From positions 231,672 to 295,671 of the forward strand of contig JAFGAR010000028.1 in NCBI GenBank assembly GCA_016933575.1: 64,000 bases of DNA, read 5' to 3'. The translations under genes were made by a program, and so were the position numbers. The notes under the pieces are model-generated. The model ran no database searches. It was not told the origin of the DNA and saw only the letters and a program-made list of their open reading frames with translations. This DNA comes from Candidatus Thorarchaeota archaeon (lineage in GTDB: Archaea > Asgardarchaeota > Thorarchaeia > Thorarchaeales > Thorarchaeaceae). Positions 3,001-28,893 of the stretch are shown here, piece by piece (within the stretch, counting starts at the first letter, position 1; each line of letters begins with the position of its first letter).

Positions 3001-6000
3001 GAGGTCGTATCGAGAATTGTATCTGGAAGAGTATCAATTTCGTGGCTCCACTCGTACGAATATCCATACACTCCACTGAACGCATCCGATGCACCAAACC
3101 ATTCAATGAACACTTCATCAATGGATGACCATGTATTGACAATGTGGGTAGAAGTGAAACTAATCGGATTCTGTGGGAACGGTGAAGGTTGATCAATAAG
3201 AATCTCGATTGGTGGATTAGTTTCGACATTGCCATTTCGGTCTGTAGATCTATAGTAGAACCAATTCTGACCATTATTGTGGATTGTTACTGGTATGGAA
3301 TACTCAATCCAGGTCACACCGTCAAAGCTGAATTCTGTAGAATAAATACCAGAGAACTCATCATTAACTTCCAAGGAAATAGTAACGGGAGAGGTGTACC
3401 AAGGTGCATTTACGACATCACCAGATGGAAAAGCCTCTGTAATCGGAGCAGTCGTATCAATCTTAATGGTAATTATCTGGTAGGGTTCAATATTTCCAGC
3501 ATTGTCGATTGATCGATAGTACAATATGTTAATTCCATTAGCAGAAACCACAATGGGATTCGAGTAGGTAATCCAGTCTATTCCATCATAGCTGTATTCA
3601 ATTCTAGCGACACCAGACACATCATCGATCGCATTAAGACTGAATTCGACATAGGTGCTATACCAGTCATCAAAACCAATTGTACCATCAAGAGTTACAG
3701 TGGTCTGAGGATATGGTTGATCCACATGTTTAAACATTGACCAGTAGTATGCCTCAATTCCAGGAACATCACCAATTTTTGTCAGGGTTCCATCATACGA
3801 TGCTTTCATTAGATTCATATTTTTATCTACGAAAATGAGGTCCCTCTTTCCATCACCATCATAGTCAATGAACTGATTCAGATTATCATAGCAGTCCTCC
3901 GAATAATACAATCGTCGTGATACATCATAGGTCCAAAGATTGGTCCCGGTTGCTAGATCCCAAAGATGGATGCGTGCATTCGTCTCAGTCCAATCATATA
4001 GTGCAACCTCGTAGAATCCATCACCATTTAGGTCGAAAATATCAATTGTGAATGAACCCCGACCCCAGAGTGGAAGTGGTGGGAGGACATCAGCGCCCGT
4101 TGTCATGTTAATATAATAAGCGTAGAGAGTTACTTCGGAATATGAAGTGGTACAAACTATTCCTGTACCGAGTGATATGAGACCAAGGTACGTCTTTATG
4201 TTTCTATCAGCATTTCCTCCAGGGAAACTTCTTTGCCACAAAAATGTACCATCGTGATCATAAGCAACGACTGGAGGTCCCCATCCCGCCACAAAGAATT
4301 CCGGTTGTGGATCTGCATCTATATTCACTACTTCAAAATCTGTCATTCCTCCACTATAAGAGTCTTGGAAGTAAAGTAATTGTGTCATAGCGAAGTTTCG
4401 TAAATCAACAACTTGTACTCGTGGTTGTCCTTGAGGATAGATTGCTGCACCAGCCATCAAGTATGCATCACGTACTCCATCGCCATTATAGTCTGCAAGG
4501 AAACCTCTATCGACTCGCCATCCAGGATTGTACTGAGCAAGAAGATTTCCATCACTATCATGAATGAATAATGTAGGTGCAACTTGTCTTGGTAGATGTT
4601 GAGTTACAATCTCCTTTATTCCATCATTATTGAGATCCTCAAAATACATCCCAAAAATGAAGGCACAGCTCACCTCAGCAGGAACCTGCCATGACCAGAG
4701 AAGACTTCCATCTTCATAGTCGAATCTCATAAGTCTGATGTAGGTTTCATATCCAGACACATACAATTCCAAATGGCCATCATTGTTTGTATCATTTAAA
4801 GCGAAAGTATGGAAGATGTATGCGGGCATGTAGGTGTCCCAAATCAAATCGAAAGCACCAGTTATGGGATTGTAGTCCTGTCTCATCACGTGACCATCAC
4901 GTGTGGTGATGATTAGAGCATTATCTGAATCTGTATACGGGAGATCAATCTTGAAATCATCTGATTTTGTAACCTCTGGATTACCTGCTACATCTGTAGC
5001 ATTGAAGTAGATTGTGAATTCACCCTGCTCAGAGAATGTGAAGGGGCCAGTATACTCAATCCAGTTGACTTCATCAAAGCTGTATGCAATTGTTTCAACA
5101 CCCAATCCTTCATCGGTGGATGTGAGGGTTATAGTGACTCCAGAAGTGAACCAATCATTATCTCCCGGGGTTCCATCAATATCGATAACAGTTACTGGTG
5201 GAGTATCGTCTTCAAGTACAGCAAACCATGAAAGTGAATTGACTTCACCGTATGCAATATTATTTACTACATCAATCCAAAGTGTAACATCGATCCATTC
5301 ACCATTCTCTAAGTGTTTGAGCTTCAGATTGGATTCTCCGGCATCATTTTGTTTGCCTTCATATGGAAGTGCAATTGTGATTGTTCCTATGTATGTTGCA
5401 GTAGTTGTAATGTCGTAGTAGTAATTACCACCAAGTTTGAAACCGGTATGTGGATGTGGTGGTGTTGTACTTGCGATGATAGTAGTTATGCCAGCTGTCA
5501 AAGTTTCATCAAATACTATAGAAACTCCAGTTTCGGAATCAACAACCTCCACATCAATTCCATACGGAGTATTTCCGAAAACCTCCACAGTAACATCCAT
5601 GCTACTAGGATTGTTATAAGCATCATTAGCCCAAAGAGTAAATACATACAAACCTGGATTTAGTCCATCAATTGCGATACTGATGGTTTCAGATTCGATT
5701 TGACCTGAATAAATAGGATTCCCATCTTTGAGAATTTCATAGGTTCCAGGATAGGGTTCAATGATATTCCAATCGAGGAAATGACCTAGTGTTCCAGCAT
5801 CATATGGATAGTAAATTTGTCCAGATATTTGAGGTCCAATGTCGTCATAGATTTCCAAAGAAATGATTTCACTAATTGCACTCCAATATTGTGGATCTCC
5901 ATCCCATCTCGAACGAATATAGTAAGTTCCCGGATCATAAATCCATGATGCAATGAATTTACCATTTGAACCTGTATTGCCAGCTGAAATCTCCTGCCAA

Positions 6001-21548: not shown

Positions 21549-23501
21549 TTAGGATACTATTTGGAGTACGCCATCTAGGACCAATTTTGTTGCAACAAAT
21601 TTCATTGCAGGAAGACTGACATTAAGTTTCCTCACAACATCCTCCAGTGAGGTCAATCCATCACACAAGTCAACAAATTTTAAAACAACCGGTCCATAGG
21701 CTTTCTCGGTCTCTTCATCCACACGACCAATCTTCTTGAGATAGCTCGTAGGTCCAATCTCGACTTTGAAATCAATCCAACCGTAAAAGTTTAGGATCTG
21801 AAGGCTTCCAATCACAGTTTCACGAGGAAGATCAAGACTACGTACTAGACCACCAACAGTATCGTTCTGTTCAATTGCGCTCTGAACTTCTACAACTGCA
21901 GACCCAACTTTTCGATTATTGAATGGCAATGGTCTGCCAGCCTCACGCGCACGAACAATATAGTCAAGACTAACAGGGCGTAGAGGTACCTTTGATAGGA
22001 CATCAAAGATGGACGACTCAAAGATGGACTGGTCTCCATTCCAGGTCTCCCAAACATCATCAAACTGGTGTTCAATATCGATAAGCAGTGAATTCAAGAT
22101 ACTGCGTTGTTCTTTTTCCTCGCTGTCATTAGTCACAATCAGAGCCATCACGAGATGCTTGGATTTCTCAACCATAACGAGATTTCCTTCATGTTCGATG
22201 GTCTCCAGCGCATTTGTTGAGATGCCATCAGTCTCTCTACCATCGATGCCACCAAAGGAGTCGAGTGCGGAGATAAGAGATGCAATAGCATTCTTGTCAA
22301 TCTCCTCATCAGAATAATTGAGGTGATATACGACCTCTGGGAGACCTTCTTTTGTAACAATAAGCATTAGATGAAGGACCTCAGAATGCTCAGGTACGAC
22401 TTCAGCTACAAGACCAGCATCAGTGGACACCACAGTATCAGTGGTCGGATTGGTCTTGGTAGTTGTCTGTTTTGTTCCTTGTGCCATCTCTGTCGATGTG
22501 CTTCCGGGTTTTAGTCCTGTGGGATCGTACGGTACATCTTCAAAACCAGTCTCTTGAGCCTGAGCTTGTTTCTCGGCTGTTCCGGGTTGCCCCATCTCCT
22601 CGGTACCCCTTCGGACTGTGATCATCTCACTAATAGGTAGGTCAGGAAGAGTGACTCCAACGGTCTTTGCAGCAACTTCAAGCATTAACCTGATGAACTC
22701 TTCACGACGGGTCTTATCTGTTGCAACCATCTGGAACGTTGGTGCTCCAAGCAGTCGTTTGATCTTCTCTGCCTTCATCGACTCAGGAAGGTCCTGTTTG
22801 TTCGCAATAATGAAGAGGGGTACTGCTGGTGCTTCTTTCTTGATATTTCGTAAGAGGGATTTGGTCTGCATGACATTTCTGAAGCTTGAATCAGTGACCA
22901 AGAAGATAACGTCAGTCCCAGAGAAGTAGAAACTCCAGAGATCTTGAAAAACAGCCTGTCCAGCGAAGTCCCAGATTGTTACAAGAAAAGTGCCGAACTG
23001 TATCGTTTCAGACGAGTCTACGGCCACATTGATGGTGGGAGTGTATCCGCCGGGGGCTGGTTCTTTACCGAATAATAGACGTAGCAGAGTAGACTTGCCA
23101 ACACCACCAGAGCCTACAAAGGATATCTTGAACCTTGTGAAGATGAGCTCTCCAAGGATGTCGTCAAGATTGTCGCGAATGTACCCAATACTGTTACCAC
23201 GTAAAGCAATGGAGATTCTTGCAGCACCTTCGCGTACACGATGCTGTATGACTCGGTCCTCATCACGACCATCAGTGACAAAGAGAAGTAGCATCTCACC
23301 ATCCACTTCAGCATGAAAGACCTTGTGTTTTTCAGCGACAAAGACAGGTATATCAGAAGCAAGACCTTCAGTAGTAGTAAGGTCTCGATAGCCTGCAAGG
23401 AAATCACTGATGTCATGTTCAAGAAAGTCGATCTTCCAGAACCTAGTTCGCACTACAACGTTGCCATCATCTTTGCCAATCAGCAATACGTTGTGAATCA
23501 T
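21549..23501 (-). CDS. Longin - Arf/Rab-like small GTPase - linker - longin - tandem winged-helix protein (Asgard eukaryotic-signature type)
   Basis: G1 GSGGVGKST, G2 YTPTI, G3 WDFAGQ, G4 ANKQD, G5 VAT. N-terminal MIHNVLLIGKDDGNVVV and internal LHLMLIVTKEGLPEVVY ... IASLISALDSF are longin-like; two C-terminal HTH-like repeats. Confidence 0.85.
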   Translation of the reverse strand: MIHNVLLIGKDDGNVVVRTRFWKIDFLEHDISDFLAGYRDLTTTEGLASDIPVFVAEKHKVFHAEVDGEMLLLFVTDGRDEDRVIQHRVREGAARISIALRGNSIGYIRDNLDDILGELIFTRFKISFVGSGGVGKSTLLRLLFGKEPAPGGYTPTINVAVDSSETIQFGTFLVTIWDFAGQAVFQDLWSFYFSGTDVIFLVTDSSFRNVMQTKSLLRNIKKEAPAVPLFIIANKQDLPESMKAEKIKRLLGAPTFQMVATDKTRREEFIRLMLEVAAKTVGVTLPDLPISEMITVRRGTEEMGQPGTAEKQAQAQETGFEDVPYDPTGLKPGSTSTEMAQGTKQTTTKTNPTTDTVVSTDAGLVAEVVPEHSEVLHLMLIVTKEGLPEVVYHLNYSDEEIDKNAIASLISALDSFGGIDGRETDGISTNALETIEHEGNLVMVEKSKHLVMALIVTNDSEEKEQRSILNSLLIDIEHQFDDVWETWNGDQSIFESSIFDVLSKVPLRPVSLDYIVRAREAGRPLPFNNRKVGSAVVEVQSAIEQNDTVGGLVRSLDLPRETVIGSLQILNFYGWIDFKVEIGPTSYLKKIGRVDEETEKAYGPVVLKFVDLCDGLTSLEDVVRKLNVSLPAMKFVATKLVLDGVLQIVS

Positions 23502-23584
23502 CTATTTCTCACGCTCTATGTTCAAGAATTCCTCATTATTCTAGGTTATCTATCTTTCTCGCTCGTTTCAAGCTTATTATGTTA

Positions 23585-25288
23585 TCATTTCTCCTTTAGA
23601 GAAACAAATCCTCGTTTATGCAACTCAGCGAAGACTTTGACAAGCACGCTGGGCTGCACTCCCATTGCATTTGATATACTCTGGATAGTTACTTCACCAT
23701 CAACGAACTTCAATATTTCTTCTAGGTTGGCATAGAGTGCCAGTGTTTCTTCATCAGTCTCCTTGATTAATGTTGGTACGTCATCTATTGAAACTCTAAG
23801 CTGGCAATCGATTGCATCCAATCTCTTGAGAAGATGAATGGCTCCAAGGATTAATTCGGGACCTTTTCCAGGTGCCAGACGAGCCATCGTAATTGACCCA
23901 TCCAATCGGGTCCACACAGCTTCGAGGAAATCCCCAACAGAAGCGTGTTCAAACCTGTCCCAGACAAGAGCTCGTTTTTGCCGTGGGGCTACTCTTTTTG
24001 GTATGTCTTCTGGAGGAAGTGTTGCCAGTAATTTTATGGTGAAGAGAGGCGACCTGAACAGGTCAGTCGGATCTTCCGAGACCTCAGGAACCTCATCAGT
24101 GAACAACTCTGGGAGGAATGAGAATCGTGTACGAAGAGACTCTACATCAGCATCCTTTCCAGTGATTAGAGTAAAGACATATTCATCACGTTCAATCGTA
24201 ATATAGCTCAGATCACCCGTTCTGAAGACCGAGGTCTCTGCGGATTTAGAGGTATCAATCCTGAAGGAGGTTATAGCGGCGACAATGTTTGGGGACATTT
24301 CAAGAAATCGTGAACGCTCCTGATAGTAGTAGCTATACGCAGCTTCACCAGTTCGTTTATCCACAACAAAGAAGGCTTGATGTCCGATGTCTTCTTCGAC
24401 CTCTTCTTTTTCCTCTAGCAGTTCGCTCTCCAGGTCCTCAAGTATCCACTTCTCACGGGCAAGTTCAGGATGTACATCACTGAAACCACCGTAAGCCATC
24501 ACCGAGAGAAGAAGCGACATGGGTTTGGGTGAAACAGAATCGCACAGATCAACACCATAACGTATCTCAAGGTCACGTGTAGTATCAAGATCCCTATCAG
24601 AACCAGGTACAACAATGATTCTTGCAGCAGACTCACTTCGAAGGCGCAAGACTACTTCTTGGATTGTATCACCCGCAGACATCTTAGAGTTCACAACTAG
24701 TGCAAATACATCCACTGATGACAGAAGTTCATTCCAGGCGATTTTGATAAGTTCTTTGAACGACATTTGGATTGCCTTGACTGAGAAGGGACCGATAGCT
24801 ATAGAGTCAGTCAGTACACTTCCGTTAGGCCGCTTGATGGACATTAGAGAATCAACTGCAATTGCTGACATGTTATCAGCAAATGATTCTGATTGTGTCA
24901 CGAAACAGATTCTCAAGGGAGTTCGCAACTCAGCCTCAGCGTCTTCAATAAAATCACCTTTGAAATCTCGAACTGAAGAGGTGTCTACTTCCTTTGTCAC
25001 AATTTTCTGTACAGATTGAATTCTAGTTATCTCATCATCAGAAAAAACATCAGAGTCACTTATAGTAATGATAATCGTTACATCATTTATCTTACCAATT
25101 GCTACTGCGTGTTGATGTACCTTGGTGAGTATGAATGGTTGAGTTGATTCTTCTTGGACTAATGTGTAGTATTCTTCAACTACTGTCAGTAGAAAATCTT
25201 CTGACAATTCCTCTTTCATGAATGATAGTGATGCAAGTACCTTAGACCCAAGCAAGTCATAGAGGAGTGTACTAGCTATCACGACCAT
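23585..25288 (-). CDS. Paralog of the neighbouring GTPase protein with a degenerate (pseudo-)GTPase domain: longin - pseudoG - longin - wH - wH
   Basis: LRICFVTQSESFAD aligns with FKISFVGSGGVGKS, DSIAIGPFSVKAIQ with ETIQFGTFLVTIWD, and WNELLSSVDVFALVVNS with WSFYFSGTDVIFLVTDS. Second longin AFFVVDKRTGEAAYSYYY; tail repeats LDGSITMARLA and VDGEVTIQSIS. Confidence 0.75.
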   Translation of the reverse strand: MVVIASTLLYDLLGSKVLASLSFMKEELSEDFLLTVVEEYYTLVQEESTQPFILTKVHQHAVAIGKINDVTIIITISDSDVFSDDEITRIQSVQKIVTKEVDTSSVRDFKGDFIEDAEAELRTPLRICFVTQSESFADNMSAIAVDSLMSIKRPNGSVLTDSIAIGPFSVKAIQMSFKELIKIAWNELLSSVDVFALVVNSKMSAGDTIQEVVLRLRSESAARIIVVPGSDRDLDTTRDLEIRYGVDLCDSVSPKPMSLLLSVMAYGGFSDVHPELAREKWILEDLESELLEEKEEVEEDIGHQAFFVVDKRTGEAAYSYYYQERSRFLEMSPNIVAAITSFRIDTSKSAETSVFRTGDLSYITIERDEYVFTLITGKDADVESLRTRFSFLPELFTDEVPEVSEDPTDLFRSPLFTIKLLATLPPEDIPKRVAPRQKRALVWDRFEHASVGDFLEAVWTRLDGSITMARLAPGKGPELILGAIHLLKRLDAIDCQLRVSIDDVPTLIKETDEETLALYANLEEILKFVDGEVTIQSISNAMGVQPSVLVKVFAELHKRGFVSLKEK

Positions 25289-25344: not shown

Positions 25345-26640
25345 TTAATCAACCTTGTTTGCCTTTCTCCTTTTCACTAGCTCTTCAAATGGAATCATCC
25401 CTCTCATGAAACACTGATAATCGGATGTAGTCCATGAGGAATTATAATCCATGACATCAGAGCCTCCACCTGATGAGATCTTAGGGAGATCAGAAATGGC
25501 TTCGAACACACTGATTGGATGAGAGAGACCATTCTCTTCAGGCTGGGCACTCTCTCTTGTTTTCCGTGACACAATTCGAGCGAAGCAGCTATCCGGTTTC
25601 TCAATAACTTCATTATTCCTATTTGCTAGAATGAATACACGCTTTCTACGTTGAGGTACTCCGTATTCTTCTGCATGTAAGAGGAATGCTCTGGTCCGGT
25701 ATCCTTCCTTCTCAAATGAATCTAATAGAGACTCCAATACTCTTCCGTGTTGCATCCATCGTATACCTGGAACATTCTCTAGGATCACATTCTCAGGTTG
25801 CAGAGTATGGATTAACTCTATCATTTTAAACACGAGAGAATTACGTGAATCTGTGTGATTCCACTTTCCTGCAGTCGAGAAGCCTTGACAAGGGGGACCA
25901 CCTGCTAGTAAGTTCAATGTCCGTCCATGCAGTTCTGTTTCAATGATGTGGATAAGTTCTATAATGCCTTCTATGCTTGAGAGGTCGAGTTGTTTAGTCA
26001 ATGTGTGTGGATGATTATATCGATACGTCTCGCACATGTGGGCATTGAAATCGGAAGCTAGAACAATTCGATGACCTGTTGCCTGCAGACCTTCGGATAG
26101 ACCCCCAGCTCCACAAAAGACATCAACGCTCAAACCTTTCTTTCTAATCCTGTCGCTAACCGCTCTTGCAAGAAGAGGCGGTACTGCATTCCCTATCTGT
26201 TTGAACCGCGAACTAAAACTTCCAAGGAATCTATATGAATCAGGAAAGGACTGTAACCGCGCAGCCTCTCGTTGAGATATTAGTCGGTCTTGCATTGGGT
26301 GAATAAAGGAACCGTTCCCAGGTCTGTTGAAATAGGTATTTACCGTGTAGGAGGGCAGGTTACCATCCAGTCGCCCGTAGTAGGTGGTACGTCCACCAGA
26401 ATTTTTAATTTGAGTAAGGCGAGCTGATTTTGCGATAGTTGCTTCAGGTATGTCCTTCCAATTGCCGCCAGATGGTACAGATTGTAAAATCTCCATATCA
26501 AGTTCGCTGAGTGTAGAGCAAATGTGATTGAATAGAATCTTCTCTAGTTCAAGTTTCTGTTCAGAAGTAGAGATAGTACCATTATTCACACACAGTGTTT
26601 TACGACATGCTTTGAAAGTCTTTCCACAACAGATCTTCAA
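25345..26640 (-). CDS. Circularly permuted DNA (cytosine-5)-methyltransferase, Alw26I/Eco31I/Esp3I type
   Basis: Motifs IX-X (RLISQREAARLQSFPD, QIGNAVPPLLA) precede motif I (VFCGAGG), IV (GGPPCQGFS), VI (ENV) and VIII (QRRKR). Start codon uncertain. Confidence 0.9.
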   Translation of the reverse strand: MKICCGKTFKACRKTLCVNNGTISTSEQKLELEKILFNHICSTLSELDMEILQSVPSGGNWKDIPEATIAKSARLTQIKNSGGRTTYYGRLDGNLPSYTVNTYFNRPGNGSFIHPMQDRLISQREAARLQSFPDSYRFLGSFSSRFKQIGNAVPPLLARAVSDRIRKKGLSVDVFCGAGGLSEGLQATGHRIVLASDFNAHMCETYRYNHPHTLTKQLDLSSIEGIIELIHIIETELHGRTLNLLAGGPPCQGFSTAGKWNHTDSRNSLVFKMIELIHTLQPENVILENVPGIRWMQHGRVLESLLDSFEKEGYRTRAFLLHAEEYGVPQRRKRVFILANRNNEVIEKPDSCFARIVSRKTRESAQPEENGLSHPISVFEAISDLPKISSGGGSDVMDYNSSWTTSDYQCFMRGMIPFEELVKRRKANKVD

Positions 26641-26655
26641 TATCTAAACTTCAAA

Positions 26656-28893
26656 CTAGGATAGTTCAGAAAAAGCTCTAAGGATTCGACGGCATTCCTC
26701 ATCGGGGGCTCTACGGTATCGAAGTATCAATTCTACTTCTTTATTATTGAATCCATAGAGGGAGAAGACAACAGCTTCCAAATTTGGAGAGGGACGGGTC
26801 GGATCGGATTTCTGTTTAGCTACTTCTTTTAACATCAAATTTCGGAGACCTCGTTGTTCTCTCCACGGTAGTATGATTGGGAGATTCTGGAGTTCGCGAA
26901 TGGACACATGGTTATTGGAATTACTGACCTGAAATCTCCAATTCAATAATTCCGAATTCAAAAGACCGAGGACAAAGTCAAGCGTTTTAGCATCAGGAGG
27001 TGTTACAAGGAGATAGTTACATGAATTAGCCAAGATGGTAGGAGGCGAAATGGATGCAAATTTCAGTCGCCATCTCTGACCCATATTTGAAACCTGTTGA
27101 CACGCAATTCGATTCATCCCTATGTGATTGGCACGTTCAGAACTATTAAGGCGGTTAAGAAATTCATCAAGATTAACAAATTGAGATTCATGAGTGCTTT
27201 CTAGTTGAGTAAAACGTGAGATATTAGATCCACGGACTAATCTAATACCTGTGTTATTCGAAGTCATGAACTTCTTATCAATAGTAAGGTCCAATTCTCC
27301 ACGACGAATAAGCACTGATTCCAGAGAGAGCAAGCTGGGATGAGTGTGCATTTTTCTTAGGAGCTTAAACCCAGAGGCATCAATCCGGGGAATTACTAGG
27401 GATGCTCCCATAGACCTTGAGATGTCATCTAGAGATATCTTGAAACTATCGCGTTTCGTAGAAACCCGACAAATAGGCTGGTTGAATCCAATATCAATGG
27501 ACTCTGTCGTACCACCTCTTGTAAAGGTGAGAATTGAAACGGATTGTGTCACATTGGGGAAGATTCGGGATGTTTCGGGAAATTCATCAATACTCTCTAA
27601 TGAATTGTGTAAGAGGAGGTTTCTTCTGAGAGCTTGAGCTGAAATATCACATAGGATGTTAGAAGGCACAATGCAGCCAATTTTGCCACCTTCTTTTATG
27701 AGTTGCAAAGCTCGCTCAATGAAGAGCTGGTAGGTATTTACAGTGTAGCTGGTGGAAAGTGGGTATTCGTTAGATTTTCGAAAGAAGTGGAGGAGTCTCT
27801 TTATTTCATCCTTGTATGCGACATAAAGATCTGTATGAATCTCTTTGTCCCCTTGAAGGAGACGTTCTCTCATGAACTCTGCAAGGTTTGGCTTTAACCG
27901 TTCATAAGGTGGATTCATGATAATGAAATCGAAACCACCATTATCTCTATTGAAGACCTCTGGAAATTCCTCCTTCCACTCAAAGGGATACCTGTTTTTA
28001 AGATTCGTGAAGTATTTCTGATTCTCAGAAAGTCCATCTAGACCGTATCTTGAAATTAGCGAGTTCCCATTCCTAAGTGCGGCTTTCAAATGAATTCTAC
28101 TGAGTGACGAGGATTTTGGGGCATTTATTAATTTCAACGAAATATTCGCTACTTCTATTGCACCAGAATCAAGATCGACACCATAGAGTGATGGTCCAAC
28201 ATTCTCAAAGAGATTATTCAAATCGGGTACGGATGAGCCAGTAGTTGTAGCTACTTTAATTCCCTGTTCCACTGCATCTTGAAGAGCTAAGGATGTTGAT
28301 ATTAGAAATGCCCCAGTACCACAGGCGGGATCTAGAATTTTAAGCGACAAGATGTCTTGAATTGCTGGAAGACCTTTTTTCTTAATCTTCGAAATAAAGG
28401 TCTTTAATCGTGGTTCCAGTGTCAATGATACAATGTAATCCGCAACGATGAATGGTGTGTAGTATGCTCCAAGTGACCTCTGTCTGGATGGCTTCTTTTG
28501 AGATACTGGCAGTCGATACGATCCAATAGAGTGAAGCCTTCCTAAAAGATCAACAAAGTCCCGAATTGAGAGACCTTCAATTTGCGCTCGTATATCCAGA
28601 GTGGTATTGTTGATCATCTCCTGAACAAGATCAATGACCTGGTTTTTGTCAAGGCCTCTTCGCTCTCCTTCATAGGATAGAGATGTACATGCCAGCTCCT
28701 CAGATTCAGGCCCGGAGTGACTGCGTTCTAATCTGCCTCTTAAGACCCAATTCAAGGCGGAAAGTCTAGATGCGTCGATTGTCATTCTTGTGTCATCAGA
28801 CGAAATGCTTGTAGCATAATGATGGAAACCACTAATAATTGCCCATGCAAGAGTATCCAAATCGGTTTCCATAATGACTCCTCTATAGGTCAT
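26656..28893 (-). CDS. N6-adenine DNA methyltransferase, Alw26I/Eco31I/Esp3I type
   Basis: GAYYTP, ILDPACGTGAFL, FDFIIMNPPY; C-terminal CQQVSNM ... RLKFA ... NSCNY ... LNWRF ... SNNHVS. Confidence 0.9.
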   Translation of the reverse strand: MTYRGVIMETDLDTLAWAIISGFHHYATSISSDDTRMTIDASRLSALNWVLRGRLERSHSGPESEELACTSLSYEGERRGLDKNQVIDLVQEMINNTTLDIRAQIEGLSIRDFVDLLGRLHSIGSYRLPVSQKKPSRQRSLGAYYTPFIVADYIVSLTLEPRLKTFISKIKKKGLPAIQDILSLKILDPACGTGAFLISTSLALQDAVEQGIKVATTTGSSVPDLNNLFENVGPSLYGVDLDSGAIEVANISLKLINAPKSSSLSRIHLKAALRNGNSLISRYGLDGLSENQKYFTNLKNRYPFEWKEEFPEVFNRDNGGFDFIIMNPPYERLKPNLAEFMRERLLQGDKEIHTDLYVAYKDEIKRLLHFFRKSNEYPLSTSYTVNTYQLFIERALQLIKEGGKIGCIVPSNILCDISAQALRRNLLLHNSLESIDEFPETSRIFPNVTQSVSILTFTRGGTTESIDIGFNQPICRVSTKRDSFKISLDDISRSMGASLVIPRIDASGFKLLRKMHTHPSLLSLESVLIRRGELDLTIDKKFMTSNNTGIRLVRGSNISRFTQLESTHESQFVNLDEFLNRLNSSERANHIGMNRIACQQVSNMGQRWRLKFASISPPTILANSCNYLLVTPPDAKTLDFVLGLLNSELLNWRFQVSNSNNHVSIRELQNLPIILPWREQRGLRNLMLKEVAKQKSDPTRPSPNLEAVVFSLYGFNNKEVELILRYRRAPDEECRRILRAFSELS

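Follow-up and report, generated by a model that had tools for sequence, protein, structure and literature searches.

Two adjacent genes on the minus strand of a 64,000-nucleotide stretch of Thorarchaeota DNA (hereafter the window) encode long paralogous proteins, both built as longin-G-longin-winged helix-winged helix. We find that the downstream protein, P0001 (650 amino acids, aa), is by its motifs a small GTPase of ordinary catalytic build, predicted to cycle GTP. The upstream protein, P0002 (567 aa), is a full-length paralog which, judged from its sequence and its model, retains the G fold without the G motifs, that is, a pseudo-GTPase. The pair is kept together across one family of Thorarchaeia, and we think it reasonably probable that the two proteins form a pseudo-symmetric heterodimer, held via their second longin domains, with GTP cycling confined to the 650-aa subunit. 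The window belongs to a Thorarchaeia metagenome-assembled genome (MAG) of 3.47 Mb in 215 contigs, 85.5% complete. Of the data sets listed as containing this DNA there is one, the probable source metagenome, and none is RNA. To our knowledge, small GTPases are numerous in Asgard genomes, as are longin and roadblock proteins, and almost none of them has a matched partner.

P0001 carries every G motif that a preliminary description of the locus had read from its letters: GSGGVGKST at residues 130-138, T156, DFAGQ at 178-182 and NKQD at 234-237. Across 35 orthologs, reaching down to 62% identity, GSGGVGKS, DFAGQ and NKQD are invariant. Pfam assigns the domain best to Arf (68.6 bits, cut-off 22.3, E 6e-19), followed by Roc (63.0, cut-off 27) and Ras (53.2, cut-off 21.6), and the NCBIfam model small_GTP gives 65.1 against a cut-off of 42.5. 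Gtr1_RagA also exceeds its cut-off (26.7 bits, cut-off 22), far under the score for Arf. The model of P0001 stands on a shallow alignment and has a predicted local distance difference test (pLDDT) of 61.9. Nevertheless its longin folds find clear counterparts: in VIA comparisons residues 1-122 match longin folds with Z 12-14, and residues 372-509 match Sec22b with Z 12.2 and a root-mean-square deviation (rmsd) of 2.9 over 121 of 128 residues, VAMP7 with Z 11.9 and the longin domain of the Lokiarchaeota roadblock-longin protein 8yqg with Z 11.2. The first longin domain includes a loop, TDGRDE at residues 76-81, that is invariant in the orthologs and contains R79. Conserved Arg residues also occur in the second longin domains (R466 in P0001, R386 in P0002).

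P0002 has no Pfam G-domain match. Whether its middle domain is a G fold had been named beforehand as a refuting test, and the AlphaFold2 model (mean pLDDT 77.7) displays one: residues 121-272 match Rheb, Rab, Ras and Rho with Z 10.9-11.7 and rmsd 3.0-4.0 over 129-146 residues, at 6-12% identity. The first longin domain (residues 1-122) likewise matches COPI subunit chains and VAMP7 (Z 11.3-13.3, rmsd 2.4-3.0, 113-117 residues aligned). What the middle domain lacks are the G1, G3 and G4 motifs, and they are lost family-wide; the preliminary description had read the loss from the single protein. The P-loop equivalent reads CFVTQSESFADNMSAIAV, and in 33 family members it follows the pattern C-F-[IV]-T-x-x-[DE]-P-x-x-E-D-K-[ST]-G-T-A-V. 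A Lys stands at the P-loop position in 17 of these 33, never in a GxxxxGK[ST] context, and the Walker A glycines are absent. In the hhalign comparison with the P0001 family, DxxG corresponds to IQMSF and NKxD to PGSD. In Foldseek, P0002 comes closest to RagA/RagC and Gtr1/Gtr2, with alignments of about 310 columns (E 1.6e-7 to 1e-5, probability 1.0), and the best matches include the Lokiarchaeota RagA-like GTPase 8yl2. These matches indicate that the G fold of P0002 together with the domain after it resembles the G domain plus C-terminal roadblock domain (CRD) of Rag proteins.

The two families are paralogous. BLASTP of P0002 against P0001 is weak (the C-terminal 240 aa at E 7e-4, a 75-aa stretch of the G domain at E 0.039) and HMMER alone does not link them. 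hhalign does, placing residues 3-562 of the P0002 family against 1-645 of the P0001 family over 535 collinear columns (95.2% probability, E 2.7e-8). The duplication proposed in the preliminary description is thus borne out, and so is the common domain order of the two genes, which fold matches support. The winged helices stand on weaker evidence than the longin and G folds: in both proteins it consists of helix-helix-helix-strand patterns in the models and of winged helix-turn-helix (wHTH) Pfam scores that are below threshold save one borderline case.

The pair is conserved as a pair. A scan of species-representative genomes yielded 63 loci with a relative of P0002, 32-70% identical to that of the window. 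In all 54 loci with enough sequence, a GTPase gene whose product is 59-89% identical to P0001 comes next downstream, in the same orientation. The spacer measures 94-182 nt in 50 of these loci, and in the other 4 inserts of 1.9-3.6 kb separate the genes. When 44 genomes of the family were searched for both genes, 41 had both and 3 had neither (G116, 93% complete; G124, 85%; G176, 74%), and two more incomplete genomes lack both as well. One apparent case of a GTPase without partner (G215) was discarded, as the gene is truncated at its 5' end by a scaffold gap of 100 N. These counts speak against one of the refuting outcomes named in the preliminary description, a pair that is not conserved together.

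The distribution is narrow. Close homologs of the pair are all labelled Thorarchaeota. Among 201 Asgard genomes, full-length matches to P0001 occur only in the family of the window and in one genome of a sister family belonging to the same order; matches in other genomes are limited to the longin-G part or the G domain. Intact full-length P0002 orthologs are present in 55 of the 61 genomes of the order, and they are confined to the family of the window. A P0002-family profile run against 1.84 billion representatives retrieved 45 matches only. Nearly all of these belong to the P0002 family itself, whole or as fragments, and one is a free-standing longin-winged helix-winged helix protein. Within the family, 36 columns are invariant in 34 sequences that reach down to 33% identity.

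Constraint, measured as mean pairwise identity within each family, is spread unevenly over the two proteins. In the first longin domain it is 0.70 for the P0001 family and 0.32 for the P0002 family, in the G or pseudo-G domain 0.90 and 0.38, in the linker 0.25 and 0.15, and in the winged helices 0.67-0.69 and 0.42-0.48. The second longin domain departs from this pattern, with 0.58 and 0.59, and the helix after it (residues 401-428 in P0002) has 0.51 and 0.61. Longin 2 and its helix are thus the best conserved part of P0002, and the motifs GHQAFF, PN..AA and F..KLL..LP within them are invariant in the family. By this measure the N-terminal half of P0002 is relaxed, and longin 2 with its helix is as constrained as in P0001. 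Equal constraint is expected if the region is a shared interface or working surface. The linker that joins the G domain to longin 2 also differs in size; in P0001 it spans 75 aa rich in T, Q and E, and its equivalent in P0002 about 13 aa.

Both halves of the five-domain build also exist as separate proteins in the same genome, and again as tandem pairs. One contig (C57) encodes two adjacent longin-GTPases, P0241 (306 aa) and P0242 (296 aa), which are 41% identical and have both motif sets intact. Another (C138) encodes two longin-winged helix-winged helix proteins, P0243 (291 aa) and its neighbour (275 aa), whose genes lie 2 nt apart and whose products are 39% identical to each other and homologous to the C-terminal half of P0001 (BLASTP E 3e-24 and 2e-19). 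With both modules found as separate pairs, the five-domain proteins can be read as a fusion of a longin-GTPase with a longin-winged helix-winged helix protein. Such a fusion suggests a functional link between the modules, together with a habit of pairing. The other longin paralogs of this genome, on contigs C5 and C45, have no GTPase gene beside them. Another Asgard family (f12) also has, in several of its genomes, two longin-GTPase genes 1-2 kb apart on one contig. A relation to the actinobacterial conservon (roadblock, DUF742 and GTPase) was considered and dropped, since DUF742 reached only E 0.015 on one paralog; the longin-like domain beside the G domain contradicts it too.

The C-terminal module appears to resemble the NPRL2 and NPRL3 subunits of GATOR1 in build. 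Residues 374-650 of P0001 are collinear with the GATOR1 chains 8fw5_C, 7t3b_C, 9o5a_C and 9v0j_A (Z 9.8-10, 175-192 residues aligned), at an rmsd of 12-14 Å because the domain angles differ, and with Z scores no higher than the longin domain alone gives. In 8fw5_C, 7t3b_C and 9o5a_C the matched chain residues are 6-326 or 3-326. By length, chain C is probably NPRL3 and 9v0j_A probably NPRL2. Residues 253-565 of P0002 weakly match a eukaryotic NPR2-family cluster in a shape search of the ESM-Atlas (TM 0.31). A profile of the C-terminal module run against PDB sequences returned only wHTH matches at chance level (E at least 0.12). HTH_NPRL3 (PF24064) scores 21.8-23.9 bits against a cut-off of 27.2, and only on the free-standing paralog; 12 of 27 members are matched at E 2.4e-5 or worse, all under the cut-off, and the same model fires in 5 of 14 control genomes. 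A whole-genome search with NPR2 (PF06218) found nothing relevant. Together the models support a build like that of NPRL2/3 at the level of the fold; they do not support membership of the NPRL2/3 family.

We think that the pair most likely arose and works as follows. A whole-gene duplication inside one Thorarchaeia family would have given P0001 and P0002, each of them a longin-GTPase module fused to an NPRL2/NPRL3-like longin-winged helix-winged helix module. P0001 would be the working GTP switch. P0002 has lost its nucleotide-binding motifs, with a relaxed constraint on its N-terminal half, and would serve as fixed partner and platform, so that a single subunit cycles GTP. The two would meet mainly through their second longin domains, as Rag GTPases do through their CRDs and NPRL2-NPRL3 through their longins. 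For the G domain, the longin and winged-helix parts may be built-in surfaces of regulation or effector binding, be it as GTPase-activating protein (GAP), guanine nucleotide exchange factor (GEF) or scaffold. The domain order, the paralogy, the loss of motifs, the conservation and the shared presence or absence of the genes are observed; the pairing, its interface and any GAP or GEF role are what we infer.

Rag GTPases and NPRL2-NPRL3 are obligate heterodimers. For P0001 and P0002 a heterodimer was predicted with each family entered as its own alignment (residues 1-510 of the P0001 family, 1-430 of the P0002 family). The ipSAE was 0.60 (0.61, 0.59 and 0.60 in the single runs), the runs agreed in at least 96% of contacts, the partners had pLDDT of at least 74, and the best of 3 controls scored 0.00, a result classed as weak support. 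Of 80 solved complexes 58 reach the mark that was passed, and of 110 mismatched pairs 2 do; passes at 0.60 or less comprise 7 of the 80 solved complexes plus both mismatched pairs that passed. Since Rag and NPRL complexes are already solved, the pass may reflect mere likeness to them, and we do not count it as evidence. The heterodimer of the preliminary description gains a weak pass in silico, which we set aside.

Several results weigh against our reading. The genome G112 of the sister family (96% complete) has a P0001 ortholog, 47% identical and with all five domains (L072:4667-6601), and no pseudo-GTPase either upstream or elsewhere in the genome. Upstream of this GTPase gene lies one for a 500-aa protein with a signal-peptide-like start, and the downstream genes, for a beta-CASP protein and an NAD kinase, are syntenic. 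The GTPase can thus exist alone, a partner is not universally needed, and only one family has undergone the duplication or else kept the dead copy. The inserts in 4 loci indicate that co-transcription is not obligatory. Moreover, the flanking genes (two methyltransferases, a beta-CASP nuclease and an NAD kinase) are syntenic in a distant Thorarchaeon, so the adjacency of the pair carries less weight, being partly inherited gene order. As to the C-terminal module, neither Pfam NPR2 nor HTH_NPRL3 matches P0001 or P0002. A GP motif before strand 2 of the longin domain has been proposed as the mark of GAP longins, and GAP-type longins are reported from Asgard archaea (PMC12290439). None of the four longin domains of P0001 and P0002 conserves this motif; a Gly of the beta1-beta2 loop is conserved (G13 and G386 in P0001, G14 and G314 in P0002) with no conserved Pro after it.

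Some of these observations would suit proteins that do not pair at all, P0002 being an independent NPRL-like scaffold or regulator that sits beside the GTPase gene only as the outcome of tandem duplication, and the GTPase acting as a homodimer or monomer. The lone GTPase of the sister family, the separated genes and the synteny of the whole region all fit such independence. We hold it to be unlikely, as order and strand are strictly kept while P0002 diverges to 32-36% identity, both genes are jointly absent from 3-5 genomes, and the longin-2 constraint is equal in both proteins.

Alternatively, the pair could be a GTP-controlled DNA-binding regulator, with DNA bound by the tandem winged helices under the control of the G domain. 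The last winged helix weakly matches Rrf2, MarR, TrmB-type and other DNA-binding wHTH families, and P0002 has a basic first winged helix (isoelectric point 10). All of these matches lie under the Pfam cut-offs, among them Rrf2, MarR and Fe_dep_repress on residues 530-565 of P0002, except a borderline HTH_27 on P0243 (23.1 against 22.2 bits). Furthermore, of six winged helices examined five are acidic or neutral, each protein as a whole is strongly acidic (net -30 and -37), the closest fold matches that span several domains are to protein-binding winged-helix regions of GATOR1 chains, and the gene cluster contains no target-like operon. We regard DNA binding as highly improbable. That P0002 is a decaying, functionless relic of the duplication, as its lost G motifs and its fast-evolving N-terminal half might suggest, is close to refuted by its full-length frames across the order, its invariant columns and a second longin domain as conserved as in the active paralog.

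The pair shares features with several known systems and differs from each of them. Rag/Gtr heterodimers (RagA/B-RagC/D, Gtr1-Gtr2), like the archaeal 8yl2, have a G domain followed by a roadblock- or longin-type domain, and they come as paralogous pairs. Unlike the roadblock-type domain of Rag proteins, the domain after the G domain of P0001 scores best as a longin; P0001 falls to Arf rather than Gtr1_RagA as best Pfam family; and Rags have neither an N-terminal longin nor winged helices. In addition, both Rag subunits bind GTP, whereas the site of P0002 is lost. NPRL2-NPRL3 (yeast Npr2-Npr3) appear to share with our pair a longin followed by C-terminal domains that contain winged helices, and are paralogs that heterodimerise. 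Here, in contrast, the module is fused to a GTPase, the NPR2 model is unmatched and the GP motif is not conserved. The Rag/GATOR1 likeness claimed in the preliminary description survives as likeness of fold (Foldseek matches to RagA/C and Gtr1/2, GATOR1 chains at Z of about 10); for NPRL2/NPRL3 it does not extend to the Pfam models or the GP motif.

Parts of this architecture have been published. According to Tran et al. 2024 (PMC10933270), Prometheoarchaeum MK-D1 has a GTPase with a longin fused to one side and a roadblock domain to the other, and an operonic pair of Rag-like GTPases that AlphaFold2 predicts to heterodimerise through their roadblock domains. P0001 and P0002 share with these proteins the longin and roadblock/longin domains that flank the G domain and have the winged-helix tail in addition. 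The paper reports neither such a tail nor a degenerate partner, and the P0001/P0002 family is specific to Thorarchaeia. The accessible text of Liu et al. (10.1101/2020.10.19.343400) describes, among the asCOGs, a family that joins a longin to an NPRL2-type C-terminal domain and occurs in most Thor MAGs, as well as Rag-family GTPases with a fused longin domain. P0243 and its neighbour fit the first and probably correspond to it, and P0241 and P0242 fit the second; the same text mentions neither the two modules joined in one protein nor an active/inactive tandem pair. An incomplete literature search, covering running text, found no paper on both modules fused or on an active/dead tandem pair, none combining pseudoGTPase with Asgard and none with LokiRagO. 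The individual building blocks are already published, which makes the "undescribed system" of the preliminary description too strong a term; the fusion and the active/dead pair are the part of it for which we found no precedent.

What the locus adds is a GTPase fused to an NPRL2/3-like module, with a degenerate twin kept alongside it across one Thorarchaeia family. It provides a concrete set of two proteins for co-expression and a natural "one live, one dead" design for the study of the working and the origin of Rag-type heterodimers and longin regulators. Proof of the pairing, or of a regulatory activity, would bear on how the Rag-GATOR1 machinery for nutrient sensing in eukaryotes came about. 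A bolder version, which we consider doubtful indeed, is a self-contained proto-Rag/GATOR1 switch that joins a Rag-like heterodimer with one frozen subunit to an NPRL2/NPRL3-like regulatory heterodimer, with one of the longins as GAP or GEF, in cis or in trans, for the single live G domain and the winged helices recruiting downstream partners. If it were true, this switch would be a minimal archaeal model of how a GTPase was coupled to its longin regulator before the two were split in eukaryotes.

Features of the gene pair (positions in the window) and of the free-standing modules (positions in their own loci).
Feature	Coordinates	Strand	Basis
Upstream gene P0002, pseudo-GTPase paralog, 567 aa	23585..25288	-	Open reading frame; no Pfam G-domain match
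P0002 longin domain 1, aa 1-121	24926..25288	-	COPI subunit chains, VAMP7 longin (VIA)
P0002 degenerate G domain, aa 122-288	24425..24925	-	Small-GTPase fold; G1, G3, G4 lost
P0002 longin/roadblock domain 2 and conserved following helix, aa 302-428	24005..24385	-	beta-beta-alpha-beta-beta-beta-alpha, low pLDDT
P0002 two winged-helix domains (predicted), aa 429-567	23588..24004	-	Model secondary structure; sub-threshold Pfam
Intergenic spacer P0002/P0001, 83 nt	23502..23584	-	
Downstream gene P0001, active-type GTPase, 650 aa	21549..23501	-	Open reading frame; Arf, Roc, Ras above Pfam cut-offs
P0001 longin domain 1, aa 1-118	23148..23501	-	COPI and AP adaptor small/medium subunit chains (VIA), Z 12-14, rmsd 2.2-3.1
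P0001 G domain, aa 119-295	22617..23147	-	G1 GSGGVGKS, G3 DFAGQ, G4 NKQD; Pfam
P0001 disordered linker, aa 296-370	22392..22616	-	pLDDT < 50; identity 0.25
P0001 longin domain 2 and following helix, aa 371-510	21972..22391	-	VIA
P0001 two winged-helix domains (predicted), aa 511-650	21552..21971	-	Model secondary structure
P0241, P0242, longin-GTPases (contig C57)	L002:4969-5889, L002:6026-6916		
P0243 and neighbour, longin-winged helix-winged helix (contig C138)	L003:4883-5758, L003:5761-6588		

Open reading frames on the opposite strand within the two genes are short. Upstream of the pair, at window positions 25345-28893 on the minus strand, lie the genes for a C5 DNA methyltransferase and for an N6 methyltransferase of the Eco57I/TaqI_C type; both hold the same position in the distant Thorarchaeon (L001), and no endonuclease gene was seen.

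Many Thorarchaeia encode a further longin-GTPase of about 550-680 aa (e.g., L068:3002-4822 in G055), for which the genome of the window (85% complete) yielded no counterpart of full length. Its C-terminal half is a long acidic tail, probably disordered, that ends in DDYYDYFVDDW.

The spacer between the paired genes may be an insertion hot spot. A gene for a 528-aa protein with no Pfam match is inserted there on the opposite strand (L001:7704-9290, minus strand; also L028, L029, L066 and L050, where the insert is 3.6 kb), and in L016 a phage-type integrase gene (4247-4813) follows right after the P0002 ortholog.

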